32,000 nt of DNA from Halomicronema hongdechloris C2206 (GTDB taxonomy: Bacteria; Cyanobacteriota; Cyanobacteriia; Phormidesmidales; Phormidesmidaceae). Position 1 is the stretch's first letter, and the number at the start of each line of letters is the position of its first letter. A program made the translations under genes and the position numbers. A model generated the notes under the pieces. That model made no database searches. It was not told the origin of the DNA and saw only the letters and a list, made by a program, of their open reading frames with translations. Where the stretch lies: NCBI RefSeq assembly GCF_002075285.3, contig NZ_CP021983.2, forward strand, positions 3,000,001-3,032,000, written 5' to 3'. Shown piece after piece: positions 1 through 18,193 of this stretch.

Positions 1-2485
1 CAATGCCAAAGACCTTGAGGGAGACTCCACAGGATATCTCGATAATGAAGAAGAAGGGATTGAACTGAAACAGGGCGTCAAAGCCGCAATGGCCTTCAAG
101 ATTAAAGACCTTAAAGCCAAAGAACAATTCTGCTCTGGCCCCCAATTGCACCGTATTAGAGGTGATGGCAAAGTAATTCATCACCCGAATCCGACCCCAG
201 GATTCGTTCAGGATATTGAGGGAAACCCGCTTGGGAGTGGGGAAGGGCAGCGGTGGCGGTGTGAACTGCGGGTGGAAGCCCCCCACACTAACCACGAAGT
301 TGCTGTCATTGCCCCAGGCAATGAGTAGCCCCATCTCTCCTTCAAGGGTGATAAAGAGGATCCGTGACTCAAAGAGACTGGCAAAGAAGTAGGCCCGCTG
401 CTTGTCAAACTCAAGGACACCAATGAAAAGAACCTTAAGTACGAGTAGGGGAACTCTTTCGTCTGGCAGCGCCACCTTGAGAATGCCCAAAATGGCAATG
501 TTGCCTGGAATCTCAAAGATGATACCAAGGGTAAAAGTAATCAGAGCCGGGGTTCCCCAACCCAGTTTGACCATGGGGCCAATCAGGAAGATTCCCTCTT
601 CTGGTGGGAAGAACTGCCGTAGATCACTGATAATCCTGGGTGCATTGACGATCACATTCCGTGGGAACATGATGCTCTCAGTTGCTCCGGTTCGAATGCC
701 TTCGGTTAAGGGTTCGGGCTTCATGGTGCGATTCAGCCCCAACAGACCCCCAACTCCCAGCAAGACAAAACCATACCCGAGCTGAAACCCTGAGCCAAAT
801 TCAGCAGAAAGGATCAGTAATAAGGAAAAGCCCTTAGAACCATCTGGCAGGCGCGTGGTGATCAGGCCAATTGCCGTAACGCTGACGATGCCAATCAGCT
901 CAAGGGATAGAATGCCATCGTACTGTTCTTTCTCGGGGTAAAAACGGAGGAAGCCGCCGCCTCTTATCACACCTGCATCTACTGCTAGCCCAACACCCTT
1001 AGGGGGGTTGAATCCAATATCTAAATCAACGGGACCAAGATTTCCATTCTGGTTCGCAGGGAAACTGAGATCTGCCCGCATGCCAATTTGTTCGATCGCC
1101 GCGATTAGAGGGCCAAAATTGGCATTGATATCAGCACTCAGGCTAATAGGAATCTCACTGGCATCAATCCCCACGCCAATAGTGATCGCCTTAACTTTGA
1201 CGACCCCAAGGTCAATATGAGCTGGCAATTGGACCAGTAAAGAACTGCTGCCATAGAAGAAAATGCCGTCTGGACCAGAAAAGCCAAAACCAAGATCAAA
1301 ATTGGATTCCAGTTTGATGTTCGACAAGATCCTAGTTAGGAAACCATCTCCTTGACTGAAATCAATGAGGAGTTTTCCGCCCTTAACTTCCCCGCCGATT
1401 GTGAAATCACCTATCGCTCGGTTTGCAGACGGATCCCAGGCAAAACCTATTCCTGCTCTCATGGACAGTTGTGTCGCTTCTAGGCGACTACCACCGGGTC
1501 GCCCCAAAATCAGGTAAGGATCACCGTTCTTATCGCCACCAATCCACTCTAAAAATGACTCCCCTTTGAGTTGTCCCGATGGAGGAATAAATGCAACCTT
1601 TCCATCAGGTTGGATGATTATTTCAACACCCGGCACCAGATCAGTATTTGAGATAAAGCGAATTATCCAGTCATCAAGTCCATACTCTTCACTGTCTACG
1701 ATGATCCGATCGAGCAAGGATAACTCTAATCCTTTAGGATTGATATTCGTTTCTGGTTTTGCTTCCAGATAAATTAAATCTAAGACGGGGGTGGCAGCTG
1801 TCTGATCGAAGATGGCAGGCACACCACTACGGTTCAATAATTTTTCGAGGGTGCTCAATAAACGAATGCCATCAAAAGAAGAACGACCCCAATCATAGAG
1901 GTTTTCAAGGTGTTCTCCGGGCCGACTAATAAAATGAGTGAATTGATTGAGCTTTATTTTTCGGCTGGTATAGGTGAAATCGCCAGATATATTTTCCTGC
2001 CGCTCAATGGCGTCTATAAATTCGAAGATCTCCGCCATTCCTGGCGTACCCTCTAAAGTTTTGATCACCAAATAGTCAAATATATTTTGGGGCAATTCAT
2101 TTGCAAATGCGTTTAATTCTGCCGCAGAAATTCCCGGCAGACTACCTCCTAAATTCTTGAGTTCGTCTGCAATACTTTGGAAGCTTTCAACCAGCGACTT
2201 GATTGTGCCAAACAAGTCAACGCCTAGGTTGGTAATTTTGGATAGATCTTCAGCCTCTATCGCTTGAATCAGGTCTGTGACCTGTCTAGGCAGCTGGGCT
2301 GCTCTAGTGACGGCTTTACCCAATACCCTCGTGAAGGCCGCTTTGGTTTCTAGCTCAGGTGGGAACTCCATCCCCAACTCTGCAAAGAAGAACCGTATTC
2401 TTCCCACTTGGAGTTCTTCTTGGAGTGGTTGGAATAATTTCGCCAACCATATGGCAATTGATTCTAGAGTTCCTGGAGTAGCCAT
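1..2485 (-). CDS. Giant beta-rich hypothetical protein (828 codons in window, C-terminal part continues beyond the left edge); resembles DUF6603-type proteins
   Basis: It is absent from the supplied ORF track because it has no stop inside the window. Hand translation of the minus strand from ATG 2485-2483 (MATPGTLESIAIWLAKLFQPLQEELQVGRIRFFFAELGMEFPPELETKAAFTRVLGKAVTRAAQLPRQVTDLIQAIEAEDLSK...) stays open to the window edge. I re-derived it codon by codon at 2278-2221 (TDLIQAIEAEDLSKITNLG), 1318-1201 (IKLESNFDLGFGFSGPDGIFFYGSSSLLVQLPAHIDLGV) and 118-2 (GFKVFNLEGHCGFDALFQFNPFFFIIEISCGVSLKVFGI). A helical N-terminus is followed by Gly/hydrophobic beta-rich modules (VDAGVIRGGGFLRFYPEKEQYDGILSLELIGIVSVTAIGL; VSVGGFHPQFTPPPLPFP). 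The DUF6603 label is recalled from similar annotated proteins, not from a search. Confidence 0.8.
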   Translation of the reverse strand, partial: MATPGTLESIAIWLAKLFQPLQEELQVGRIRFFFAELGMEFPPELETKAAFTRVLGKAVTRAAQLPRQVTDLIQAIEAEDLSKITNLGVDLFGTIKSLVESFQSIADELKNLGGSLPGISAAELNAFANELPQNIFDYLVIKTLEGTPGMAEIFEFIDAIERQENISGDFTYTSRKIKLNQFTHFISRPGEHLENLYDWGRSSFDGIRLLSTLEKLLNRSGVPAIFDQTAATPVLDLIYLEAKPETNINPKGLELSLLDRIIVDSEEYGLDDWIIRFISNTDLVPGVEIIIQPDGKVAFIPPSGQLKGESFLEWIGGDKNGDPYLILGRPGGSRLEATQLSMRAGIGFAWDPSANRAIGDFTIGGEVKGGKLLIDFSQGDGFLTRILSNIKLESNFDLGFGFSGPDGIFFYGSSSLLVQLPAHIDLGVVKVKAITIGVGIDASEIPISLSADINANFGPLIAAIEQIGMRADLSFPANQNGNLGPVDLDIGFNPPKGVGLAVDAGVIRGGGFLRFYPEKEQYDGILSLELIGIVSVTAIGLITTRLPDGSKGFSLLLILSAEFGSGFQLGYGFVLLGVGGLLGLNRTMKPEPLTEGIRTGATESIMFPRNVIVNAPRIISDLRQFFPPEEGIFLIGPMVKLGWGTPALITFTLGIIFEIPGNIAILGILKVALPDERVPLLVLKVLFIGVLEFDKQRAYFFASLFESRILFITLEGEMGLLIAWGNDSNFVVSVGGFHPQFTPPPLPFPTPKRVSLNILNESWGRIRVMNYFAITSNTVQLGARAELFFGFKVFNLEGHCGFDALFQFNPFFFIIEISCGVSLKVFGI

Positions 2486-2487
2486 GA

Positions 2488-3951
2488 TCAGTTCGTGAGT
2501 ATAGATGATTGCTGAATCTTCGCCTCAGCATCTAACTGCTCAATAACGTTGAGAAAATCTTCGGCAGTGCTGCAACGTTTGGTAACTTGAATGGCCTCTA
2601 AGGCATATTTTTGGATGTCTTCTCGCAGGGCTTCACTGCCATGCTCTTCTAACACAGCAGCCATACTCATTAGCAGGTTTTGCAATGAGACTCGATTGAT
2701 TTCAGAAGGGATGACATATTCCGGATTCTTCAGGCTGCGGCTCAATGCTGCCACAAAGGCTGGACCCTGTTTGCGCTGCCAGGTCACCATGACAGGACGA
2801 TGCTTATTCACTAACCTCAAGACTTCTTCTTGATGCGCATCAATAATTTTTTTGATTCTCTGGCCAGCCTGTGTTTCTTCTAACCGCTCTTCTATATATT
2901 CGAGCCAGATCTCATTTAGACCGTTTGAGCTAGCGTTAGGTGGTAAATCAGCTGAAGAGATTGAGATGGGAACTCTGCCAGGTATCGAGCTAGTTGTATT
3001 AATCGTAATCCCCAAGCTTATTTGAACTAGTTCTATATCGTTTGCGAAAGCTTGAGAATAATTGTTGGAAACCGCATATAGCAATGCAATAACTTCATTA
3101 TTATCATTAACGACTACAGAGCCCGAATCACCATGATACGCAAAAATATTGACTCCACTGACATAGTTGGTGCATCCCCCAGGATTGTCTGCAGGTCCCC
3201 CATTTGGATTGGGACGAATAGTAATTTCTGAAGTACCTGGATCAATGTAGCTTATTTCTCCAGATGTAAGACCTGTCGTTGAACCTCTTTTTCTTACACG
3301 TTCCCCAGAAACTGGCGAAGCTACTCCTGGAATCACTCCAGTACCTTGTATATTGCCTATTTCCAGAATTATATTTTTAAGTGAGATATCATCTTTGACT
3401 TTTGCGATCGCAGCATCTCGGATTTTGTCTTTATCGAAATTCTCAGCAATGACATTGGTTTTGCAGCACCAAGAGCACCCTACTAAAGGCTGTCCTATTT
3501 CATCCCCATCTTGCCCATATAAAACATGGTGGCAGCTAAGAATTACCCAGCTATCATCAGCATCAAGTTTGGCAAGGCAGCCTAATGTTCCGCCCCCACC
3601 AACCCCAGTATTTCTAAAGTTATTAATCCTAATTCCGCCCTTGATTGGGCGATAATTTCCTTCATCTTCAGCGCAAACTGCCAAGAGTATTTTGTTTTCC
3701 TGAATGACTATATCGGTTTTAATCCCCTCTACTTCTTTGGGAATTACCGCGTTCGATTCAAGATCAGCTTCGCTTTTCTTTTCTCTTACAATTATCTTGA
3801 TACATCCTTCCTCAGTCAATTGACCATCTATTTCCTTGATTCCTATTCCTACATTAACTACGTTAGGATAGCCTGCCAATACATCTTTGACTTTTTCATG
3901 TACTTTGAGAAGTTGTTCGTGTTGTCTAATCAGCTCTTCACGACTTTTCAT
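2488..3951 (-). CDS. Chymotrypsin-fold (S1 family) serine protease with N-terminal pro-region-like domain and ~150-aa helical C-terminal extension; no signal peptide
   Basis: 487-aa ORF with catalytic-triad contexts GTLGCLAKL...VILSCHHVL (His), IRDAAIAKV (Asp) and FAYHGDSGSVVV (GDSGS Ser), plus RKRGSTTGLTSGEI. The N-terminus MKSREELIRQHEQLLKVHEKV is hydrophilic with no export signal. The stop TGA (2490-2488) lies 2 nt before the ATG of the downstream giant ORF. Confidence 0.85.
   Translation of the reverse strand: MKSREELIRQHEQLLKVHEKVKDVLAGYPNVVNVGIGIKEIDGQLTEEGCIKIIVREKKSEADLESNAVIPKEVEGIKTDIVIQENKILLAVCAEDEGNYRPIKGGIRINNFRNTGVGGGGTLGCLAKLDADDSWVILSCHHVLYGQDGDEIGQPLVGCSWCCKTNVIAENFDKDKIRDAAIAKVKDDISLKNIILEIGNIQGTGVIPGVASPVSGERVRKRGSTTGLTSGEISYIDPGTSEITIRPNPNGGPADNPGGCTNYVSGVNIFAYHGDSGSVVVNDNNEVIALLYAVSNNYSQAFANDIELVQISLGITINTTSSIPGRVPISISSADLPPNASSNGLNEIWLEYIEERLEETQAGQRIKKIIDAHQEEVLRLVNKHRPVMVTWQRKQGPAFVAALSRSLKNPEYVIPSEINRVSLQNLLMSMAAVLEEHGSEALREDIQKYALEAIQVTKRCSTAEDFLNVIEQLDAEAKIQQSSILTN
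3404..3411. repeat. HIP1 octamer GCGATCGC (one example of many copies)
   Basis: Exact copies were located by eye at 3404, 4153, 5656, 6057, 10024, 11245, 12177, 19010, 21977, 22396, 26230, 26434, 27126 and 27416, with many more in 28-32 kb. The list is incomplete. HIP1 over-representation is a known cyanobacterial hallmark. Confidence 0.85.
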
Positions 3952-4016
3952 AATCAGTTTTATCCTTTACTAAAACTCCATTAGGAAAATTCATGATGAA
4001 GTCACTACCAGGCAAA

Positions 4017-4247
4017 TCACGAGTTTGTTTCCACTTTGAATTCAGACCTGGTTGCATCGATGTCTGAAATACTCTCATTCAGCATCCATTGGGGAGGAGC
4101 CGGCTTTTCGATCGCAAGGATGTTGGGAAAGTTGGTGCGGGTAGGAAGGTTGGCGATCGCAATTTCCCCAATCACGATATTGCCAGCCTGACCTGTGGGG
4201 AAATCCCAGATTCTTAGGGGATTTAAAGCCGTCTTAAAACCGAGCAT
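4017..4247 (-). CDS. Hypothetical small protein (76 aa), weakly supported
   Basis: ATG-initiated ORF on the same strand as the protease, 65 nt upstream of it, in an AT-rich region where long open frames are uncommon. It has no recognisable motif and no clear Shine-Dalgarno sequence. Confidence 0.25.
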   Translation of the reverse strand: MLGFKTALNPLRIWDFPTGQAGNIVIGEIAIANLPTRTNFPNILAIEKPAPPQWMLNESISDIDATRSEFKVETNS

Positions 4248-4946
4248 TAAACATCAATAGCTCAGGTTATGGAATCCCCTCCATCGACTCAGTTATCTCT
4301 CCTGAAGCAGTGAAGTTCCTTGTAGATTAATACCTAATTTTTCTAGAGAGATTAAACTCCTTGTAGCCAACCTTTTACTCAAGAGTATATTGAGCCTGGG
4401 AAATGATTTTTCTATAGAATACTCCTCAGCTTTAAAGAGTGAGATGTCGAAATTTAAAGGAATAGAAGATATCTCGAGACATCCCCAAAAAGTCACCTTC
4501 CGGATATGAAAGAATAGACTACTCTGCTCTGAAAATGATCTATTTTCAGAAAATTGCTATAATTGCATATATTGAATATATGCACATGCCTAAATGTAAT
4601 TTAGTTAGCAATTTTTGCTTCGCCTAAGGGCAATAAAGAAATAAAGATTCGTATATTTTCTCATTTGTTTATAAAACCCAAACCATCCTATCTTGTGGCC
4701 AGATTAATCGCCCTCTGAATCCCCCAGCCGCACCAGCCATGAGGAGATGCCTACGGTCTATCAGCAGTCGTTGGATCCCTGGTGTATTGTTCTGCTACTG
4801 ATCGTTAATTGCTGGGGCGACTGCGGCATTGGGTTGTACCCACAGATCGACACCGCCTCCAAGGCTCCGGCGAAGCCTCGCGCGGATGTCAGCACTGAGA
4901 GAACAGCCCAACTCGACATTCAGCCCCGTGAGCTCAAAGCTCTTAA

Positions 4947-7586
4947 TCACCCTAAGGCCTGCTGCAGCTGTTGCTTCGCTGCCGCCAGGGCCTCGGGCAG
5001 CTTGGCCGGATCGCGGCCCCCGGCCTGGGCCAGATTAGGCCGACCGCCGCCGCCGCCGCCACAGCGCTTAGCGATGCCGCCGATAAACTTACCGGCCTGC
5101 AGCTTGTGTTCAATCACCGCCGGGCTGAAGGCGGCCACCAGGCTCACCTTGCCCGCCTCGGGCACCGAGCCCAGCACCACCGCTGCCTCACCCAGCTTTT
5201 GTTGCAATCGCTCTGCCGCCGTCTTCAGGGCATCGGCACCGACCCCGGGTAACTCGGCGACTAACAGCTTCAGATTACCGACAGTCTCGGCCTGCTGCAG
5301 CAGCTGATCTGACTTCACCAGGGCCAATTCTGACCGCAGGCTATCTAGTTGTTTCTGGGCCGCCTTCAGGTCGTTCTGCAGGGTGGTGATGCGCTCTGGC
5401 AGCTCTTCTGGCTTGGCCTTGAAGCGCTCTGAGAGATCGCGCACCACCGCTTCCCGCAGGTTCAGGTATTCCAGCACCGCTGGACCTGCCACCGCTTCGA
5501 TGCGGCGAATGCCAGAAGCCACCCCGGTCTCGGAGATGATCTTGAACAGCCCGATCTCGGCGGTGTTGCCCACATGGGTGCCACCACACAGCTCCATGGA
5601 GACGCCAGGAAAATCGATCACCCGCACCTCGGCACTGTATTTCTCGCCGAACATTGCGATCGCACCCTTGGCCTTAGCGGTATCCAGGGGCATGATCGCC
5701 ACGTCGGCCTGGTGGCCCTCGGCGATCCAGGTATTCACCTGTTCCTCCACTTGCTGTAATTCCTCCGGCGTCAGGGGCCGCGGGCAATTGAAATCAAACC
5801 GCAGCCGATCGAAGGCCACCAAGGAACCCGCCTGGGAAATACTGTCATCCACGATCTTCTTCAGAGCCGCCTGCAGCAGATGGGTGGCCGTGTGATTAGC
5901 CTGGGCCCGCCGCCGGCAAGCCCGGTCGATCTGGGCCGTCACCCGGGCACCGGGAGTCGCGGTGCCCCGCTCCACCCGGCCCACATGCACGAAGATGTCC
6001 CCATCCTTCTGCACATCGTCGATGCGGATCACCAGCCCCTCGCCAGAGAGGTAGCCGCGATCGCCGATCTGCCCCCCAGACTCGGCATAGAACGGCGTCT
6101 GATCTAGAATCACCTGGACATCAGTGCCTGCTTCGGCTGCCTGGGCCAGCTCCCCCTGCACCAGCACCGCCACCACCTGGCTATAACTGCTGGCGTCGGT
6201 GTAGCCCAAGAAGTCAGTAGAGTGCACCTGTTCCGCCAACTTGTCTAGACTGCCCTGCACCGTCAGGTCGATGGTCTCGTGGGCCTGCTTGGAGCGCTGC
6301 CGCTGTTGCGCCATCTCGGCCTCGAAGCCCTCCATATCCACGGCGAGGCCGTGCTCGGCGGCAATCTCCTGGGTCAACTCCAGGGGAAAGCCATAGGTGT
6401 CGTAGAGCACGAAGGCATCTTGCCCCGAGATCTGCTGGCTGCGCCGCTGCAGGATCTCGGCCAATAGTTTCTCGCCCCGCTCCAGGGTCTCCAAAAAGCG
6501 GGCTTCTTCCCGAGTTAGCTCTGCCTCAATCACAGATTGTCGTTGACGCACAGCCGGATAGGCTTCCTCCGCCAGCCGAATCGCCGTCTCCACCACCTGG
6601 GTAATGAAGGCGCCTTCAATGCCGATCAGGCGGCCATGGCGCACCACCCGCCGGATTAACCGCCGCAGCACATAGCCTCGCCCCACATTGCTGGCAGTGA
6701 TACCATCGCCGATCATGTGCATCACGGCTCGGCTATGATCGCCGATCACCTTCAGCGACACCTTAGTCTTGTCGTCGCAGTCATGGTATTTGAGCCCAGC
6801 GATGGCTGCGGCTTTTTCGATAATCGGCAGGATCAGGTCGGTCTCGTAGTTATTGGGTACCTGCTGCAGGATCTGGGCCATGCGTTCTAACCCCAGCCCC
6901 GTATCGATGTTCTGATTCTGCAATGGCGTCAGCGTGCCCTCGGCATCCCGGTTGTACTGCATGAACACCAGGTTATAGAACTCGATGAAGCGGGAGTCGT
7001 CGTCTAGATCGATGGCCTCATCCCCCCGTTCCGGATGGAAATCGTAGTAGATCTCAGAACAGGGGCCGCAGGGACCGGTAGGGCCAGAACTCCAGAAGTT
7101 ATCGGCTTCCCCCATGCGGATGATGCGGTGGGGCGGCACTCCAATCTGGTCCCGCCAGATGGCAAAGGCGTCGTCGTCTTCCCGGAACACACTCACCACC
7201 AGACGCTCTGGGGGCAAGCCGAAGACCTCGGTGGAGAGTTCCCAGGCCCAGGCAATAGCTTCCTCTTTGAAGTAGTCCCCGAAGCTGAAGTTGCCCAACA
7301 TTTCAAAGAAGGTGTGGTGCCGGGCAGTGCGACCCACATTCTCGATGTCGTTGGTGCGAATGCATTTCTGGGAGGTGGTGGCTCGTGGCACCTCCGCTTC
7401 CCGCTGCCCCAGGAAGATCGGCTTAAATTGCAGCATGCCGGCAATGGTCAACAGCACCGTCGGATCCTCTGGCACCAGGGAGGCACTGGGCAGGATGCGA
7501 TGGCCCTTCTGCTCGTAAAAGGTTAGGAATGTCTGGCGAATGGAATCCCCGGTTTTAGCAACGGGTTGAGACGAAGGCATAGACAT
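4947..7586 (-). CDS. alaS: Alanine--tRNA ligase
   Basis: 879-aa ORF with AlaRS hallmarks: N-terminal [24 protein letters not shown] and [18 protein letters not shown], editing-domain [11 protein letters not shown] and MELCGGTHV, and a C-terminal [19 protein letters not shown]1-type tail. Confidence 0.98.
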
Positions 7587-10447: not shown

Positions 10448-11318
10448 TTACTCTTCAAACATCCAATCTATAGAGAAGTAAATGCCGTTTTCCTGCAGCG
10501 TGTCTTCATCCTGATCTGGATCAATAAGGGGGTAGCCATAGTCCAGACGAATTCTGAAACTTGGGTCCACCTGCCAGCGTAAGCCAACGCCAATACTGGC
10601 AAGTCCTTCTACAGATGTCTCCTCGTTCCAGCCAAATCCCCCTTCTACAAAGGGAGTCAGCTGTAACTCTCCAGGAGCAGCCGATAGAGGGAAGCGCAAT
10701 TCTAAGGAGCCGGTGAATCCATTGTCGGTGACCAGTTGATTCTCACGATATCCTCGGCACTGGTCTGCCAAAGGAGGATGTCTAGAATAAAGGTGTCGTG
10801 AGCTATTTACCGATGCAGTGCCCCCATTGCCAAAGCGAAACCGTCGTCAAAAATGGGACCTGTCGTCTCTGAGACCATCAAATCGTACAGTATTATCGCT
10901 GCCGAGAGTGTCATCGGAACTTTAATGAGCGCACCGGTACCCCCATGGTCCGTCTCCGCACCCCGTCAAGCATGGTTGAATTTGCTTTGAATGGTCGTAC
11001 GGAAGGGATGGGGGTGTGGGCCACCAAGCGAGTGTACAAGAAGTCCCACGCCGCGATTCTGCGGTGGGAACAACGCTTGGCAGATCAGGTTGAATCCTGG
11101 TCACCACCCGCTTCTGAGGGCAGTGAGATCACCTTAAAAGGTGACGAGATAGCCGCTGATGCCTGAAAAGGTGACTCGCCCGCCATCTGCTGTCCGCACG
11201 ATGGTGCTACTAGGCGTACCTAAATCAATTTCGGCATGGAGACGGCGATCGCCATGAATGGGGTGGGTGCGATAGCCAAAATTGCTGGTGCTACTGTTGC
11301 TGTGGCTGCCCTGTCCTA
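10448..11318 (-). pseudogene. Omp85-superfamily (ShlB/FhaC/TpsB-like) outer-membrane beta-barrel gene, C-terminal fragments only, split by an IS remnant
   Basis: Piece 10448-10771 reads ...CRGYRENQLVTDNGFTGSLELRFPLS...TPFVEGGFGWN...GVGLRWQVDPSFRIRLDYGYPL..., the RGY...ELRFPL pattern of TpsB/Omp85 barrels. Piece ~11134-11318 (minus strand) reads ...SNFGYRTHPIHGDRRLHAEIDLGTPSSTIVRTADGGRVTFSGISGY and would abut it. The ~375 bp between them is the IS1-like fragment. There is no N-terminal POTRA part and no proper start. Confidence 0.5.
10813..11148 (+). mobile_element. IS1-family-like transposase remnant (N-terminal third, in-frame TGA, 3'-truncated)
   Basis: Reads MQCPHCQSETVVKNGTCRL, then stop (TGA 10870-10872), then DHQIVQYYRCRECHRNFNERTGTPMVRLRTPSSMVEFALNGRTEGMGVWATKRVYKKSHAAILRWEQRLADQV...ITLKGDE. 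That is a CxxC...CxxC zinc finger plus HTH region typical of IS1-type transposases. It ends right at the GDE that normally carries the first catalytic Asp. No catalytic core follows. Confidence 0.5.
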
Positions 11319-11322
11319 GGAG

Positions 11323-11520
11323 TTGATGTGGCGGAGCCAGGAGTGCTTTGCGATCATCCTGCTGGATATCAAGCGTCGCTTATTGAGACTACAGGTGGTG
11401 ACGATCGGCACGGCCACAGAGACGTTGGCCCATCCCCACGATGTGTTTCGAGCGGTAATTCACCGAGAAGCAACCCGAATCATCCCCATGGCGAGAGCAA
11501 CCTCAAGATTGAGTCCTTAA
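11323..11520 (+). pseudogene. RadC-like JAB/MPN domain remnant
   Basis: [49 protein letters not shown] matches the RadC pattern (E.F.vl.Ld.k.rl......G....t.v.pR.vf..al...A..ii). The following HNHPSG metal site is missing and the frame decays. Confidence 0.5.
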
Positions 11521-11644
11521 TACCAGGGGACATATTTTGGGTGGAAAACCAGGAGGCACATGGTTAATGATGGAAGAAGGCTGATCCAGCCGCCGCCGTT
11601 AACGGCTAATCAAACTTTACCAATAGATTAAGGAGGTGAGTAGT

Positions 11645-11893
11645 ATGACCCACATCAACACGCTAGAAATCCCGGATGAGCTATTTACCCAAATTCAAGG
11701 GATGGCGCTTGCTCAAGCCTGCTCGATCAATGAGCAAATTGTGGTGCTATTGCAGCAAGCTTTAGAGACAGAGATGCAAAGACAGACTCAAACTAAGGTG
11801 CTTCAAGAGATTCATCAAGCCCGCTGGACACCCCCACAAACCGTACCGGACAGCGTTGCGATCTTGAGAGAAATTCGAGGCTACGATGAATAG
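11645..11893 (+). CDS. Type II antitoxin (VapB-like)
   Basis: Small ORF preceded by AAGGAGG (11629-11635) 9 nt upstream of ATG 11645; the track lists an in-frame GTG at 11636. It reads MTHINTLEIPDELFTQIQGMALAQACSINEQIVVLLQQALE. Its 3' end overlaps the PIN toxin gene by 8 nt. Confidence 0.75.
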   Translation: MTHINTLEIPDELFTQIQGMALAQACSINEQIVVLLQQALETEMQRQTQTKVLQEIHQARWTPPQTVPDSVAILREIRGYDE

Positions 11894-12344
11894 CCCTGTG
11901 CGCTGTGTCGTTGATGCGAGTGTTGCGATTAAGCTCTTCATTGAGCAGGAGGGGTCTGAGCAAGCAGAGGTGCTGTTCGCCAAACTCAGTACAGGACCCG
12001 ACACTGAGCTGTATGTACCAGAGCTGTTTTATGCGGAATGTGCCAATGTGCTTTGGCAATATGTGCGACGGGCAAATTATCCGGCTACTGATGCTAAAGC
12101 CAGCCTGGTGAGGCTTAAAGCCCTGGCGCTTCAGAGGGTTGCGATTCCAGAACTGGTGAATGAAGCGTTGGATATTGCGATCGCGCACAACATTTCGGCC
12201 TATGATGCCTGTTATGTTGAACTCTCGGAGCGGCTGAAGGTGCCGTTAGTGACTGCTGACAGTAAGCTCATCCGAGCGCTAGAGGGAACAAATTACCAAG
12301 TCCTTTCCCTCACAACGTTTCCACCCTTAAATTCAAACGGATAA
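11886..12344 (+). CDS. vapC: PIN-domain ribonuclease toxin (VapC family)
   Basis: 152-aa ORF with PIN acidic residues in context: RCVVDASVAIKLFIEQEGS, ELFYAECANVLW, ISAYDACYVELSERLKVPLVTADSKL. It overlaps the upstream antitoxin gene. Confidence 0.88.
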   Translation: MNSPVRCVVDASVAIKLFIEQEGSEQAEVLFAKLSTGPDTELYVPELFYAECANVLWQYVRRANYPATDAKASLVRLKALALQRVAIPELVNEALDIAIAHNISAYDACYVELSERLKVPLVTADSKLIRALEGTNYQVLSLTTFPPLNSNG

Positions 12345-12436: not shown

Positions 12437-12464
12437 TTGAGCTGAAATAGTACATCAGTATAAT
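12437..12464 (+). promoter_or_regulatory. Candidate sigma70-type promoter for the small ORF and pAgo gene
   Basis: TTGAGC (12437-12442), a 16-nt spacer, then TATAAT (12459-12464), about 45 nt upstream of the 12510 ORF. Pattern match only. Confidence 0.3.
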
Positions 12465-12509: not shown

Positions 12510-12821
12510 ATGAGTTCTTCGAGATATGGAAACCAAAAATCATATCGTTCTGCTACTCCCAGCAGACAACTGACGCTCAATTTTGCACCTCTCCTACTCC
12601 TAACACAGGTGCAAACTGACCAGACATCAAAAGTGATCGAGCGCATCGTTAACAACATTGATGAGATTGTTCGTTTGCTCAGTTTTCCCGACTGGCAGCA
12701 AACCTGTGCAAGTGAGCGGGAAGTGAAATGGGCATTACGGAAAACGCTCTTCAAGCATCAGCTCCATCAGGATACGAAGCTGTTTGAAAAGGCGTATGGC
12801 TATATCCGGCAGTACTGCTGA
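12510..12821 (+). CDS. Small ORF whose C-terminal ~65 aa resembles the C-terminal helical domain of type I restriction HsdR subunits; either a remnant or a pAgo accessory
   Basis: TSKVIERIVNNIDEIVRLLSFPDWQQTCASEREVKWALRKTLFKHQLHQDTKLFEKAYGYIRQY fits my memory of the HsdR C-terminal pattern (..DW......r..lr..l...L.k.......). The stop at 12819-12821 overlaps the AGGAGG that precedes the pAgo ATG 17 nt downstream. The first ~30 codons look non-homologous. Confidence 0.4.
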   Translation: MSSSRYGNQKSYRSATPSRQLTLNFAPLLLLTQVQTDQTSKVIERIVNNIDEIVRLLSFPDWQQTCASEREVKWALRKTLFKHQLHQDTKLFEKAYGYIRQYC

Positions 12822-12838: not shown

Positions 12839-15800
12839 ATGTCACGTCCGTCACCTCGTGAACTATTCGATACCCCCCTATCTGGATGGGACTTTCTCAC
12901 CCAGTCAAAAGATGATGACTTTGAAGGACAGCATTTTGATCGCAAAGAAGCTGGTCGGTCACAAGGAAATTCAAGCATTTCTAAAAATGAACTTAATGGG
13001 CTTAAAGATCATGTGATCAAGACAGTGTCTGCTTTCGCGAATAGTAATCGTGAAGGAGGCTTGTTGGTTCTTGGCATATCATCTGCTGGTAAGATAGTTG
13101 GTGTCGATCATCTAAGTGAACCAAACTGTAATGCCCTTACCGACTTAAATACCCTACTTCGTGCTTATGCTGCAGAGGTTAAGTTTTACCCTTGCCAAGA
13201 CATAAACGGAGAGGAGAAAACTCTTTGTCTGATCTACTCAGGGTATCTCTCAAGCGCGATATGTGAGACACCTGAGAAAACTCCAAGAGCATGGGTCAGA
13301 CATGGGCCTCAGTCTCTTCCAATGAATCAGGACGTAAGGGAGAGCGTTCGTTTACAGAAGGGGTTGCTTGATATAGAGGGGAAACCCTGGTGTCCGTTTT
13401 CGGAAGAGGATATTGATGCTGAAGTTCTTAAGGAATTCCGACGTGTGTTTCATCCTGAGTCTACTCGTGACTTCTCAGATGAGCACCTTCTCTACCAGGC
13501 TGGAGCGATAGTCAAAAAGGAAAACGAATACTGGTTTACCTTACCTGGTCTTTTGTTTTTTGCGTCAAATCCACAACGAGTGTTACCACATGCCTACCTT
13601 CGTCTTCTGAAGTTCGTTGTACCTTCAAGTCAGTTCCGTAATCGAGGTTTGCCCTCATTTGATAAAGACATTCGAGGCCCTGTCACAAAGCAAATCCGTG
13701 CTGCCCGGACATTTCTTCGGGAAGCGGCCTTTTTTGAGAGATTACAATATCGGAGACCTGAGGGAGGCTTTGAAGAGCAGGCAGAGCTTCCATCAATTGC
13801 GGTAGATGAAGCCATTGTCAATGCAGTTGCCCATCGCGATTATCAGACAAGAAATCCTATCTGTTGCGAACACTACACCGATGCATTTGTGGTTAAGAAT
13901 CCTGGTCGTGTTCAACAGCAAAATATTGACTTGCCTGACAGATTTCGACTCGATGCAACAGTTCTCGATTCAATGCCGCGTAATCGAAAGCTCATCGAAT
14001 GGCTTCGTCTCATGAAAGACCCTGAAGGCAGAGCATTTGTTCAAGCTCTCAGTGAGGGAACACAGCGAATGGCACGAGAAATGATGCTGCTGAAATTACC
14101 CCCGCCATCATTTTTTCTCCGTGAGAATGAGACAATTCTGAAGCTAGAAAGTGAGGCTGAAAAGCGTAAGGCAGCGTTTCTGGCCAGCATCCAGGTTCCA
14201 AAGACAGAGTTTATGAACATCTACCCGTTGAATATATTCAAGGGGGATGGATATGCAACAAGAGATGAAATCCATATTCGGTTAGGCGATCTAACCAAAG
14301 CCTTGCGAGATACTTTGTCTGCTCATAACTGGCATATTGACCGCTTTGCCTATAGCCGAATAGTTGCTCATAGGAGAGGTGTAGATTTACCAATACCGAC
14401 TAATGTAAAGTCTGTAGTCCGATTTTATCCCGCCTATTGTCTTCAAGTTCATGAGCTTCTGGGGAATGTTTACCTCTCAGTGGATTATACTTGCCAAGTT
14501 TTGAATGTGCTGAAAGTACACGAAGTAGTACAGCATCTTTCATGTGGAGTGCTGATCGGAAAACGTTGTAATGCCTATTCAGAGTCCTGGCAAAGTAGAA
14601 AGATTGTATCTTTAGATACGGAATGGGCGATCATCTATTTTTTTGATAGCAATGAGGAAAAACAAGTTCAGCTAGATAAAGTAATTCCGAACCTATCCCT
14701 AACAGAAATAGAAGCTATTCTTCAAAGTCGAAATACTTCCTTTGACCTACACAGGGCGATAAAAACACATAGTCTTGCCGATTCAACTGGGGCATCGCGA
14801 AAGCGAGCCGAAAAGATACAAGCGACCGCAACCCAACTATTTTCTGGCATATTTCCGCTTCTGTTTGGAGAGTTCAGGGTTCAAATGGGTGCAGATGCCG
14901 TATCGCTATCAGAGGTTGACTCTAACTCAGCGTCAACATTTCGCATTGAGCGTATTAGTGAGCCCGCTGTAGAGTTCAGAGACCGCCATAAGTTGCCAGA
15001 CGTACGGGAGGGAATTACTAAATATGGCTCTTATGACAACGACCCACATAGGATTGAACTCATACCTATTTGCCTTGAGTCACAAAGGCAGCAAATGAAT
15101 TCTTTAATCGAGAGATTGAAGAGCGGTAAGTATAAATATCGTGGAGCAGAGCGTACATTTTCGACTCGGTTCACCTATCCAACAATTATTACGGCTAGTC
15201 ATATAGAAGGAATAGATGGTGAGGTTCAACGTCTTCTTTCGGAACATCCTGATTGGTATGGGAATGCAGATCTCAATCGTTTGTTTCTAATTCATACGCC
15301 TAAACGAGGGTATTCAATAGATGACGAAAATTCGCCTTACTTTGTCCTAAAGAGGAGGTTGTTAGAAGCAGGAATTCCCTGTCAAATGGTAGACACAGGT
15401 ACGATTAATAATCCTGACTGGAAGGATTTAAATCTTTCACTGAATATCATTTCTAAGTGTGGTGTAACTCCCTGGGTGCTTCCTGAGAATATTCCAGATG
15501 CTGACTTCTTTGTGGGTCTTTCATATACACAATCAAGGAGCGGCCAAAAAATACTTGGTTTTGCGAATGTTTTTAATAGCTATGGTAAGTGGGAATTTTA
15601 TGCTGGTAACACGACAGCATTTGATGTTCAGAAGCGGAGCGAATATCTATCGCAGCTAGCCAAATCAGCTCTTGAACGTCTTAAGCGTGAGCAGTCGCTA
15701 CCAGCTGGGGCAAGTTTAGTATTTCATCATTCGGTGCGGATCTCCAAAGAAGACTACAACGCTGTTCTTCTTGGTGTGAGAGAGGTTGCGCCAGATGCTT

Positions 15801-16219
15801 CAGTGTCGTTTGTGTGGGTGAATAGTCATAACAACTTCCGACTTTTTGACTCAAAGGTAGAAACAGATGGAAGTATACAGCGAGGTAGTTTTGTCTCCAT
15901 CTCTCGTCGTCGATTACTACTCTCGACCACTGGAACTAATGTCTATCGAAAGTCATTAGGAACCCCTCGACCTCTTGAGATTTCCGTAGATCATTATCGG
16001 CCCGGTAGTATTGAGCCAGAGAAATGTGATTTGAGGTCTTTAGCACTTCAGGTGCTCAGTTTGACGAAACTGAATTGGGCTTCGACCGATTCTTTCACAT
16101 CTGAGCCAATCACGACTAAATACGCAGGAAATATTGCATATCTGACTGCTGCATTTCTGCGACAAAGCGAGCCATTTAAATTACACCCAGTCTTAGAGCG
16201 TACTCCGTGGTTCGTGTAG
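12839..16219 (+). CDS. Fusion protein: N-terminal Schlafen/AlbA_2 domain plus HATPase_c_4 (RecG-C-like) module (COG2865-type), a linker (APAZ- or N/L1/L2-like), then MID and catalytically inactive PIWI (prokaryotic Argonaute)
   Basis: 1126-aa ORF with AGGAGG at 12821-12826. aa 28-90, EGQHFDRKEAG...VIKTVSAFANSNREGGLLVLGISSAGKIVGVD, is the AlbA_2/Schlafen signature (AFAN..GG.L..G....G.IVGV). aa 320-415, AVDEAIVNAVAHRDYQTRNPI..FVVKNPGRV...MPRNRKLIEWLRLM...ALSEGTQRM, is the HATPase_c_4 pattern (NA..HRDY...i.NPG...RN..i......E..G.G..r). The MID 5'-phosphate pocket is Y834 (15338-15340), K838 (15350-15352), Q849 (15383-15385) and K873 (15455-15457), in SPYFVLKRRLLEAGIPCQMV...NIISKCGVTPWVL. The PIWI DEDX positions are substituted: FFVGLSYT (Ser895 for Asp), VFHHSVRIS in place of h-h-R-D-G, and KYAGNIAYL (Gly for His/Asp). 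Confidence 0.9.
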   Translation: MSRPSPRELFDTPLSGWDFLTQSKDDDFEGQHFDRKEAGRSQGNSSISKNELNGLKDHVIKTVSAFANSNREGGLLVLGISSAGKIVGVDHLSEPNCNALTDLNTLLRAYAAEVKFYPCQDINGEEKTLCLIYSGYLSSAICETPEKTPRAWVRHGPQSLPMNQDVRESVRLQKGLLDIEGKPWCPFSEEDIDAEVLKEFRRVFHPESTRDFSDEHLLYQAGAIVKKENEYWFTLPGLLFFASNPQRVLPHAYLRLLKFVVPSSQFRNRGLPSFDKDIRGPVTKQIRAARTFLREAAFFERLQYRRPEGGFEEQAELPSIAVDEAIVNAVAHRDYQTRNPICCEHYTDAFVVKNPGRVQQQNIDLPDRFRLDATVLDSMPRNRKLIEWLRLMKDPEGRAFVQALSEGTQRMAREMMLLKLPPPSFFLRENETILKLESEAEKRKAAFLASIQVPKTEFMNIYPLNIFKGDGYATRDEIHIRLGDLTKALRDTLSAHNWHIDRFAYSRIVAHRRGVDLPIPTNVKSVVRFYPAYCLQVHELLGNVYLSVDYTCQVLNVLKVHEVVQHLSCGVLIGKRCNAYSESWQSRKIVSLDTEWAIIYFFDSNEEKQVQLDKVIPNLSLTEIEAILQSRNTSFDLHRAIKTHSLADSTGASRKRAEKIQATATQLFSGIFPLLFGEFRVQMGADAVSLSEVDSNSASTFRIERISEPAVEFRDRHKLPDVREGITKYGSYDNDPHRIELIPICLESQRQQMNSLIERLKSGKYKYRGAERTFSTRFTYPTIITASHIEGIDGEVQRLLSEHPDWYGNADLNRLFLIHTPKRGYSIDDENSPYFVLKRRLLEAGIPCQMVDTGTINNPDWKDLNLSLNIISKCGVTPWVLPENIPDADFFVGLSYTQSRSGQKILGFANVFNSYGKWEFYAGNTTAFDVQKRSEYLSQLAKSALERLKREQSLPAGASLVFHHSVRISKEDYNAVLLGVREVAPDASVSFVWVNSHNNFRLFDSKVETDGSIQRGSFVSISRRRLLLSTTGTNVYRKSLGTPRPLEISVDHYRPGSIEPEKCDLRSLALQVLSLTKLNWASTDSFTSEPITTKYAGNIAYLTAAFLRQSEPFKLHPVLERTPWFV
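12920..13243 (+). other. AlbA_2 / Schlafen-type domain of the pAgo fusion (aa ~28-135)
   Basis: See the motifs EGQHFDRKEAG and VIKTVSAFANSNREGGLLVLGISSAGKIVGVD. Boundaries are approximate. Confidence 0.75.
13781..14128 (+). other. HATPase_c_4 / RecG-C-terminal-like module with probable wHTH (aa ~315-430)
   Basis: AVDEAIVNAVAHRDYQTRNPICCEHYTDAFVVKNPGRV...DSMPRNRKLIEWLRLMKDPEGRAFVQALSEGTQRMAREM. Boundaries are approximate. Confidence 0.7.
14984..15478 (+). other. MID domain of the pAgo fusion (aa ~716-880) with YKQK 5'-end binding pocket
   Basis: Rossmann-like pattern IELIPICLES...LFLIHTPKR...SPYFVLKRRLLEAGIPCQMV...LNIISKCGVTPW. Boundaries are approximate. Confidence 0.75.
15479..16216 (+). 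other. PIWI domain, catalytic tetrad lost (aa ~881-1126)
   Basis: ADFFVGLSYTQSRSGQKILGFANVF...ASLVFHHSVRISKEDY...SFVWVNSHNNFRLF...GTPRPLEISV...EPITTKYAGNIAYLTAAFL aligns by eye to the Ago motifs G.DV / hRDG / P.P..YA(H/D). Confidence 0.8.
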
Positions 16220-16382: not shown

Positions 16383-16663
16383 TTGTATGTGATGAGCCTA
16401 CTTGCCAATCCTCAAAATAATTCGGCTACTCTTGCCCTCGTTCATGGTTCCGAGCTATCGCTGCCAAGCCTGATTACGAATGCTGGCCCTGAAACGGCTC
16501 GCCGCTTCGTTGAATTTTTCTCGTCAACATCCGCAACCCCAATACCCGAGAAGCCCACGCTCGGGCTATCAAGCAGTTCCTTTTAGAAGGTGTGCTCATG
16601 AACCGGGACGCCATGGGAAGACAACTTACAGGCCGAGAAGGCTCAGCGTGTGGAATCCTGTAA
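16383..16663 (+). pseudogene. Tyrosine recombinase (phage-integrase family) N-terminal remnant, frameshifted and truncated
   Basis: Frame 1 reads ...SELSLPSLITNAGPETARRFVEFF. A shifted frame then continues LVNIRNPNTREAHARAIKQFL. Together they match the N-terminal pattern P.LI..AGE.A..RF.EFF.ANIRN.NTRRAY.RA...F of a family of integrases. No catalytic domain follows. Confidence 0.45.
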
Positions 16664-16768: not shown

Positions 16769-18193
16769 TTGCAATCATCAGCCAAGTTCATTATGGAGTT
16801 ATGTCAACGTTGGGAGCAAATCCTGTGCGCGTTGCGCCCGGTATTCAAGCGTGAAAAGACCTTCGACTGGTTTGTCCTGCTGATGTGGGGGGTGCTGTTG
16901 AGTACCGCCCCACCTGCGGTGACCAGCTACGTCAATGGCCTTGGCCTGGGTGAACGGTACTATGCTCAAGTTCTGCACTGGTTCCACGCCACGGCCTTCA
17001 GTGTCGAAGTGCTGTGTGCTCATTGGAGTAACTGGCTGCAAGCACATCCCCATTGTTTACGGCTGCGAGGACAGCGGGTATATATCGGCGATGGCATCAA
17101 GGTGAACAAGGAGGGTCGTCGGATGCCGGGGGTAAAGCAACTGCATCAGGAGTCGGCGAATGTGGGCAAGCCGGAGTGGATTCGCGGGCATTACTTCAGT
17201 GCCTTGGGCCTGCTGTTAGGGCGAGGTGCGGCGCTGTTTGTGGTGCCCCTGAGGCTGCAACTTCACGATGGGATTGAGGCCGATGAGTTGGCTCAATCCC
17301 CCAGCCTAGTGGATAAGATGGCGACGCTATGTGTGACGCTGATGGAAAGCGGCAGCACCGCTATTCTGGATGCTTACTACGCTTCGGGTAAGGTGTTGCA
17401 AGCCTTCCGGGCACAGGGATTACACCTCATTACGCGGGTGCGTCTGTCCACGGTCGCCCCTGCCCCCTCTTCCCCCTTGCCCGGTCAACGGCAACCGGGA
17501 CGACCGCGCAAATGGGGGGCTTCGGTGCGGTTACGGGAATTATTTGCCCCGTTGGAAGACTGTCCCCAAGCAGCGGTCTGGCTCTATGGCCGCTATGTCA
17601 CCGTCGCTTATCAGTGTTTTGAACTTTATTGGGATAGCTCCGATGCCCCCGTTTTGTTTGTCCTGACTCAATTGCCGGGGGGCAAACCCTTCATTTTGCT
17701 TGCCAGTGATGTCACCCTCAGTGGTCCCGAAGTCATTGAAGCCTATGGCTGGCGCTTCAAAATCGAGGTCACTTTTCGCACCCTGGTTCACCTGTTGGGC
17801 GGCTTTGGCTACCGCTTTTGGCTCAAGGCCATGACCGCCACACCCACTTGGCCCCAAACCTTAATCCTGGCTCACCTCGATGAACCCTTACAACATCAGG
17901 TCAAACGCAAAGTTGAAGCCTTTGAACGGTTTCTCAACCTCAACGCCATCGTTTTAGGCATCCTGCAAGTCCTCGCCTTAGAGATGCCTCACGACGTTTG
18001 GACTCACTCACCAAGATGGTTTCGCACACGCCCCAAACACGGCTTGCCCACCGCTCAATTCGTTCAGCTGGCGCTTCAACATCAATGGCAGCATCATTTA
18101 ATGGAAAGTAGACAGGCCCTACTTCTCGCTAAATTACTGGCCGCTAAAAGACTATCCCCTCAAACGCCGACGCTGACATCCTTGCCTCTTTAG
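16769..18193 (+). CDS. DDE transposase, IS4/IS701-like insertion sequence
   Basis: 474-aa ORF with candidate DDE residues in YIGDGIKVNKEGRRMPGV and AILDAYYASGKVL, and the Y-x2-R-x3-E signature in EAYGWRFKIEVTFRTL. It also has GRPRKWG. The terminal inverted repeats of the element were not identified. Confidence 0.8.
   Translation: MQSSAKFIMELCQRWEQILCALRPVFKREKTFDWFVLLMWGVLLSTAPPAVTSYVNGLGLGERYYAQVLHWFHATAFSVEVLCAHWSNWLQAHPHCLRLRGQRVYIGDGIKVNKEGRRMPGVKQLHQESANVGKPEWIRGHYFSALGLLLGRGAALFVVPLRLQLHDGIEADELAQSPSLVDKMATLCVTLMESGSTAILDAYYASGKVLQAFRAQGLHLITRVRLSTVAPAPSSPLPGQRQPGRPRKWGASVRLRELFAPLEDCPQAAVWLYGRYVTVAYQCFELYWDSSDAPVLFVLTQLPGGKPFILLASDVTLSGPEVIEAYGWRFKIEVTFRTLVHLLGGFGYRFWLKAMTATPTWPQTLILAHLDEPLQHQVKRKVEAFERFLNLNAIVLGILQVLALEMPHDVWTHSPRWFRTRPKHGLPTAQFVQLALQHQWQHHLMESRQALLLAKLLAAKRLSPQTPTLTSLPL

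Follow-up and report, generated by a model that had tools for sequence, protein, structure and literature searches.

Gene content of the locus

We analysed a window of 32,000 nucleotides (nt) from the cyanobacterium Halomicronema hongdechloris C2206 (contig NZ_CP021983.2, positions 3,000,001 to 3,032,000; coordinates below are counted from the first letter of this stretch), in which a gene at 12839..16219 on the forward (+) strand encodes a prokaryotic Argonaute (pAgo) joined to an N-terminal Schlafen (SLFN) module. The gene is very probably a member of the SLFN-pAgo family, that is, an "extra-long" long-B pAgo acting as a single-polypeptide, stand-alone abortive-infection system by the mechanism described for RzAgo of Runella zeae. 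A first-pass annotation of the stretch, made from the sequence alone, had proposed a single 1126-amino-acid (aa) open reading frame (ORF) here, and the frame is indeed uninterrupted, comprising 1126 aa and a stop codon. In the homologue search the encoded protein was 100% identical to WP_080807610.1 (XM38_028560) of the same strain, which is labelled "hypothetical protein XM38_028560" and bears the UniRef name "Protein argonaute".

The N-terminus MxRPSPR is kept among the homologues, so the start codon is correct, and this ATG is preceded, at a distance of 11 nt, by a Shine-Dalgarno-like GGAGGA. More than 120 near-full-length homologues, mostly metagenomic, share 53-79% identity with the protein; in the metagenome-scale search (E <= 1e-5) the best 120 of 562 matches were all near-full-length (978-1193 aa). 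A scan with one genome per species recovered 78 distinct genomic loci across many phyla. An assembly chimera, which the annotation had itself named as a danger to its proposal, is thereby excluded. Residue conservation was read from 33 family members for the whole protein and from 77 sequences for its N-terminal half; unless stated otherwise, the counts given below refer to the 33 members.

The Schlafen and GHKL ATPase module

The N-terminal part (aa 1-~450) consists of a Schlafen and a GHKL ATPase domain and forms a so-called "Schlatpase" module. The Schlafen/AlbA_2 nuclease domain extends over 12923..13327 on the + strand (aa 29-163), where the Pfam profile SLFN_AlbA_2 (PF04326) reaches 36.8 bits, well over its cut-off (25.3). 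It opens with EGQHFDRK (aa 29-36), which corresponds to the nuclease motif E-x4-(D/E)-x-K (E29-x4-D34-x-K36). E29 and K36 are each kept in 32/33 members, and position 34 is an aspartate in 29 and a glutamate in the other 4. In the SAFAN box (aa 64-68) the residues S-A-F-A (64-67) are invariant and N68 is found in 32/33.

The GHKL (Bergerat-fold) ATPase domain occupies 13676..14188 on the + strand (aa ~280-450). The first-pass annotation had recognised a HATPase_c_4 signature in this region, and the domain is real although the protein's own score is sub-threshold: PF13749 matches aa 343-432 with 18 bits, under the cut-off of 26, and HATPase_c_2 gives a weak match at aa 287-334. We accept the domain because two homologues from the related loci pass the HATPase_c_4 cut-off (27.3 and 34.5 bits), because E324 and N328, located in DEAIVNAVAHRDY, are invariant, and because the predicted fold matches both 3LMM and histidine-kinase ATP-binding domains.

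When the full-length protein was modelled with AlphaFold2 (33 sequences), its first 450 aa had a predicted local distance difference test score (pLDDT) below 50, whereas aa 1-455 predicted alone (77 sequences) reached a mean pLDDT of 88.9 with a predicted template modelling score (pTM) of 0.80. The Foldseek matches of this model fell into three tiers: 3LMM (DIP2311) came first, aligned over ~450 columns (E 6.6e-20), followed by nuclease domains from human SLFN14, SLFN11, SLFN12, SLFN13 and SLFN5 (E 8e-6 to 8e-4) and then by histidine-kinase catalytic ATP-binding (CA, Bergerat-fold) domains (E 0.02-0.1). With a Pfam score above the cut-off and a fold matching human SLFN nuclease domains, the AlbA_2/Schlafen module that had been read from sequence motifs is confirmed.

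At five of the related loci, from Stigonema (L043), Nostoc (L044), an uncultured cyanobacterium (L045), Scytonematopsis (L047) and an Acidobacteriaceae metagenome-assembled genome (MAG; L068), the alignment with the query starts only at aa ~161. That these proteins are Schlafen-less was rejected, for the Nostoc protein (1179 aa) still has PF04326; their Schlafen domain is of a divergent type, probably the "Clade II" (shared with NACHT proteins) of the preprint on this family discussed below.

The Argonaute core and its inactive PIWI domain

Between the ATPase and MID domains the annotation had placed a linker of ~260 aa, and it accordingly labelled the protein a MID-PIWI Argonaute; neither description holds. 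The region of aa ~450-710 is the best-predicted part of the full-length model (pLDDT 80-93), and the best PDB fold match of that model is RsAgo (5AWH; E 4.8e-26, template modelling score 0.64 on the target) over ~800 aligned columns, about twice what MID and PIWI could contribute. The pAgo N-lobe, with the order L1, small PAZ and L2, is thus assigned to 14189..15025 on the + strand, with the PAZ at nt 14504-14722 (aa 556-628) as annotated by Ryazansky et al. 2018 (PMC6299218). The ~105 residues before the PAZ (aa 451-555) are compatible with L1 only. Taken together, the confident fold prediction, the extent of the RsAgo alignment and the annotated small PAZ identify a long-B pAgo. A short pAgo, consisting of MID-PIWI only with APAZ fused or neighbouring, was rejected on account of the folded L1-PAZ-L2 and of the absence of a conserved neighbour gene.

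The MID domain lies at 15026..15472 on the + strand (aa 730-878) and is classed as "YK-putative" in the 2018 survey. Its 5'-phosphate pocket had been described as an intact YKQK set, and all four residues, Y834, K838, Q849 and K873, proved invariant. Y1095 is likewise invariant across the family and is probably the counterpart of RzAgo Y1086, which contacts the 5'-adenine of the guide.

The PIWI domain, at 15473..16216 on the + strand (aa 879-1126), is catalytically inactive. Pfam Piwi matches aa 833-1105 with 37.3 bits (cut-off 28.9), and the best PDB sequence match of the protein, through PIWI only, is CpAgo. The catalytic tetrad was mapped via the alignment with CpAgo, whose wild-type and D-to-A mutant PDB entries identify the third catalytic residue, an aspartate; the tetrad positions correspond to S895, V930, S965 and G1097. 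The three aspartate positions (895, 965 and 1097) are never acidic in the 33 sequences. Of the four assignments, that of the glutamate finger to V930 is the least secure: position 930 is never acidic in the family, and 931 and 932 are often glutamate. The substitution of the catalytic positions that had been proposed is hence borne out, and it agrees with the 2018 survey, which records no tetrad for this protein.

Previous record of the protein and its family

The first-pass annotation regarded the fusion as a candidate new pAgo architecture, but the architecture is already known. Ryazansky et al. pointed out in 2018 that several long-B pAgos carry a fused Schlafen domain (PF04326), and they tabulated this very protein, WP_080807610.1, as a longB pAgo of 1126 aa with a small PAZ at 556-628, a YK-type MID at 730-878 and PIWI at 879-1104. 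The same table gives RzAgo (WP_028663822.1) as a long-B pAgo of 1111 aa with PAZ 545-617, MID 724-872 and PIWI 873-1087. A profile for the whole architecture existed by 2023, as the PADLOC model PDLC02394 ("pAgo", 1121 positions) matches the protein from end to end (aa 3-1126 against model positions 1-1121, 1854 bits). The family was then characterised functionally and structurally by Kuzmenko et al. (bioRxiv 10.64898/2026.05.29.728809, 30 May 2026), and the identical architecture has therefore been worked out by others, an outcome that the annotation itself had listed as refuting its proposal. Besides this preprint, our literature search found no further paper using the SLFN-pAgo family names, and the word "Halomicronema" is absent from its main text.

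Kuzmenko et al. define SLFN-pAgos as 78 long-B proteins that form a monophyletic group and measure 1071-1187 aa, a range into which the 1126 aa of the Halomicronema protein fall. The proteins carry N-terminal Schlafen and GHKL ("Schlatpase") domains, with two distinct SLFN-domain clades inside the family, are enriched in Cyanobacteria and Bacteroidota, and occur in defence islands with no conserved partner gene. The prototype RzAgo binds ~21-nt RNA guides starting with 5'-A and recognises DNA targets, and its Y828A/K832A mutant shows no guide RNA binding. Guide binding leads to helical filaments, with contacts involving L1, PAZ and L2, that hold the Schlafen domains apart in an inactive state. 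ATP binding leads to tetramerisation via the GHKL domain, in which E314 and N318 coordinate the gamma-phosphate and Mg, and E314A abolishes ATP hydrolysis. Target DNA triggers tRNA cleavage, which is abolished by D32A, and RzAgo protects against phage, the protection being severely diminished in D32A and E314A.

The family seems considerably larger in environmental data, as our 562 matches stand against 78 unique nr proteins in the preprint; these matches may include other pAgos or Schlatpase proteins. Among the related loci is a thaumarchaeal member, 46% identical to the query, on a Nitrososphaera MAG contig (L038; DATLXY010000317.1, 1502-4711). This contig measures only 4.7 kb and may be mis-binned, and the sole archaeal SLFN-pAgo of the preprint is from Heimdallarchaeota. 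At two other loci (L051, 10001-14975, and L071, 10001-14973) the match to the protein covers ~4.97 kb against the ~3.37 kb expected, which suggests an insertion within the gene, e.g. an insertion sequence (IS), an intron or an extra domain. In addition to the protein studied here, the part of the 2018 table that concerns H. hongdechloris lists at least one short pAgo, of 500 aa (WP_080810445.1), and another pAgo of 487 aa (WP_080811274.1); according to these entries, the host carries several Argonaute systems.

Genomic context in the window and around relatives

The gene sits in an island of ~10.2-18.4 kb flanked by housekeeping genes (alaS, genes for a GGDEF protein, a sugar-binding protein and an ABC ATPase, and gyrA). 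Between 12 and 16 kb its guanine-cytosine (GC) content drops to 0.42-0.46, compared with 0.56-0.63 for the housekeeping flanks, and the HIP1 site (GCGATCGC), of which the whole window holds 24, does not occur between 12178 and 19009. Together with the SLFN-pAgo gene the island carries fragments of Omp85 (its C-terminal part) and RadC, an 85-aa ORF, a PIN gene, an orphan 103-aa ORF and an IS701 transposase. The Omp85/ShlB-type C-terminal piece (10448-10771, - strand) and the JAB-domain piece of RadC (11323-11520, + strand) lie at the left border, where these truncated genes are consistent with repeated insertion and decay. A toxin-antitoxin-like pair follows on the + strand, made up of the 85-aa ORF (11636..11893) and a 152-aa PIN-domain (VapC-like) ORF (11886..12344; PIN E 1.4e-12); the two overlap by 8 nt, as is typical of antitoxin genes, and the putative VapB at 11636..11893 had no profile match. 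At the right border of the low-GC island lies the 474-aa transposase (16769..18193, + strand), assigned to the IS701 family by NF049999 at E 3.2e-38, below the equivalog cut-off, with a weak DDE_Tnp_1 match. We treat both the pair and the transposase as context only.

The annotation had set the gene in an AT-rich, HIP1-free island next to vapBC, an integrase remnant and an IS. The low GC, the HIP1 gap, the PIN gene and the IS701 element stand; the putative VapB and the "integrase remnant" (16383..16586) lack support from profiles, the latter matching neither Pfam nor NCBIfam. Searching 10-19 kb for repeats that might mark the ends of the IS or the borders of the island yielded only short, chance-like matches.

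The orphan 103-aa ORF (12510-12821, + strand) ends 18 nt before the start codon of the pAgo gene. It has no Pfam or NCBIfam match and no homologue near 80 related loci, and may not be a gene. The sole strong promoter-like site of the region, TTGAGC-16-TATAAT (12437..12464, 10/12), precedes this ORF. Elsewhere in the window, a second low-GC stretch (0.40-0.45) at 1001-5000, upstream of alaS, is possibly another acquired segment; the 487-aa ORF within it (2488-3951, - strand) has only a weak Trypsin_2 match.

To compare the neighbourhoods of relatives, we clustered 1283 flanking ORFs located within 4 kb of the gene at 78 loci, and no neighbour family occurred in more than 8 loci. The 103-aa ORF, the vapBC-like pair, the transposase and the RadC fragment had no counterpart beside any relative. 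A two-gene system was rejected, given that these loci show neither a recurrent partner gene nor counterparts of the window neighbours. The nearest relatives with long contigs (n = 2; L079, 9408-13026, and L080, 1-5095 and 9424-13239) sit in defence islands: one adjoins a Gabija-like OLD-TOPRIM ATPase and UvrD helicase, and the other has a type I restriction-modification system on one side and a 1271-aa RVT_1 reverse-transcriptase protein on the other.

Proposed mode of action and alternative explanations

All residues found essential in RzAgo have sequence equivalents that are invariant or nearly invariant across the family of the Halomicronema protein. By homology, the inactive core (L1-PAZ-L2-MID-PIWI) would load small 5'-phosphorylated RNA guides in the YKQK pocket of MID, and the guide-loaded protein would be kept as inactive helical filaments. 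Pairing of the guide with invader DNA would dissolve the filaments, upon which the N-terminal Schlafen domains would pair to form an active nuclease, and the cleavage of tRNA would shut down translation in the infected cell. The first-pass annotation had envisaged a guide-dependent sensor that activates, in cis, a Schlafen RNase and an ATP-binding module, and this agrees with the experiments on RzAgo. The domain architecture, the folds, the conserved essential residues, the missing partner gene and the defence- or mobile-island context are all read directly from the data. Support is good for membership of the family and for the mechanism in outline; the types of guide and target, storage in filaments, tRNA as the substrate and protection from phage in Halomicronema are expected from the likeness to RzAgo.

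Several points weigh against a full transfer of this mechanism. The mechanism rests on one preprint that is not yet peer-reviewed. Our sequence comparison with RzAgo rests on the 73-aa PAZ fragment of the 2018 supplement, which is ~25% identical to the Halomicronema protein by a hand count in the published alignment and 33% identical over 46 residues in BLASTP. This low identity makes the Halomicronema protein a distant relative of RzAgo, and the 5'-adenine preference, the filament geometry and the tRNA specificity may differ between the two. RzAgo was neither among the best 120 of the 562 matches nor among the loci of the one-genome-per-species scan, and a search with the PAZ fragment returned no candidate. 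Expression of the gene cannot be assumed, since the gene shares its island with an IS and with fragments of other genes; moreover, promoter-like sites in the region are no more numerous than in shuffled sequence.

The divergence from RzAgo leaves some room, albeit little, for the gene to represent a cyanobacterial subclade of the same family with another specificity (DNA guides, RNA targets, or rRNA, mRNA or DNA as the substrate) and maybe without filament storage, in which case the RzAgo mechanism would transfer in outline only. Besides the low identity of the PAZ domains, for which none of the 78 related loci exceeded 44%, the two SLFN-domain clades of the preprint speak for such a subclade, as does the fact that the filament contacts lie in L1, PAZ and L2, the least conserved parts. 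On the other hand, the guide-binding residues Y834, K838, Q849, K873 and Y1095 and the residues of the nuclease and ATPase are invariant, and the best structural match of the protein is the RNA-guided, DNA-targeting RsAgo. We similarly think it improbable that the Halomicronema-type subclade is a mechanistic variant within SLFN-pAgos, e.g. one with no filament storage or with a different guide biogenesis or RNA substrate; if true, regulation or targeting in this subclade would depart from the published scheme.

That the gene is carried along, silent or in decay, in a degraded mobile island and has no current function for the host is very unlikely. The Omp85 and RadC fragments and the IS701 transposase speak for this reading, and no significant promoter or terminator signal was found; yet the 3378-nt frame is intact, every checked family-invariant residue is retained, and the gene has its own Shine-Dalgarno-like sequence. 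Least probable of all, and barely worth entertaining, is a nucleic-acid-binding or regulatory rather than nucleolytic role of Schlafen/AlbA_2 and HATPase_c_4 in a protein that binds or silences targets like RsAgo, as suggested by the older annotations "DNA-binding domain" (Ryazansky 2018) and "predicted HTH transcriptional regulator" (Joint Genome Institute, JGI) and by the C-terminal helix-turn-helix (HTH) often present in related COG2865-type proteins, given that the family retains both the SAFAN box and the metal-binding motif E-x4-(D/E)-x-K, that the fold matches SLFN RNase domains, and that D32A in RzAgo abolishes tRNA cleavage and severely diminishes defence.

The SLFN-pAgo mechanism remains the reading we favour. 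In SLFN-pAgos, Argonaute and Schlafen, both ancient families of immune proteins, are joined in one polypeptide, a link already made and worked out by others. To this the window adds a cyanobacterial example that is well preserved and lies in an island of clearly horizontal origin, and our analysis of sequence, fold and 78 loci independently confirms the family as a stand-alone, single-gene system. There is also an indication that SLFN-pAgos are much more abundant in metagenomes than the 78 reported nr proteins. The Halomicronema protein, being divergent, offers a second case on which the published mechanism could be tested.

Comparison with known systems

The closest characterised system is RzAgo, which is known from experiment, whereas the Halomicronema protein is known from its sequence and predicted fold. 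Both share the domain order Schlafen/AlbA_2, GHKL ATPase and L1-PAZ-L2-MID-PIWI, and both are long-B pAgos with a small PAZ, a YK-type MID, no catalytic tetrad and collinear domain coordinates. The functional residues of RzAgo have equivalents at nearly the same positions (D32 at D34, E314/N318 at E324/N328 and Y828/K832 at Y834/K838), and both are single-gene systems of defence islands. They differ in length and host, RzAgo having 1111 aa and a Bacteroidota host against 1126 aa and a cyanobacterial host.

RsAgo of Rhodobacter sphaeroides (5AWH), the best structural match of the Argonaute part, is likewise a long-B pAgo with an inactive PIWI that directs an RNA guide against a DNA target. It is without a Schlafen or GHKL module and has the canonical N domain that SLFN-pAgos lack according to the preprint. 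The short pAgo systems SPARTA, SPARSA and SPARDA also couple an inactive pAgo sensor to a toxic effector by target-dependent oligomerisation and cause abortive infection. Their pAgos are reduced to MID-PIWI and work with an APAZ partner and with TIR, SIR2 or DREN effectors, in trans or in cis; filaments or oligomers activate these systems. In SLFN-pAgos, by contrast, filaments store the protein in an inactive state, and the Schlafen domain that cuts tRNA acts as the effector.

The stand-alone Schlatpase DIP2311 (3LMM; AlbA_2 and HATPase_c_4) matches the N-terminal 450 aa across their whole length. The bacterial Schlafen defence proteins of Perez Taboada et al. 2026 (Nature Microbiology, PMC13056530) are similarly phage-activated tRNases fused to variable sensor domains; in the Halomicronema protein the sensor is an Argonaute, and the main text of that paper makes no mention of Argonaute or Piwi fusions. 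The nuclease domains of mammalian SLFN11/12/13/14 resemble that of the Halomicronema protein in their fold, in the E-x4-(D/E)-x-K and SAFAN-type motifs and in being antiviral nucleases of tRNA or rRNA. The bacterial domain, however, corresponds to the C-lobe only, with the bilobed shape rebuilt by dimerisation (10.64898/2026.05.29.728809), and where the mammalian proteins carry a superfamily 1 (SF1) helicase, SLFN-pAgos carry a GHKL ATPase.

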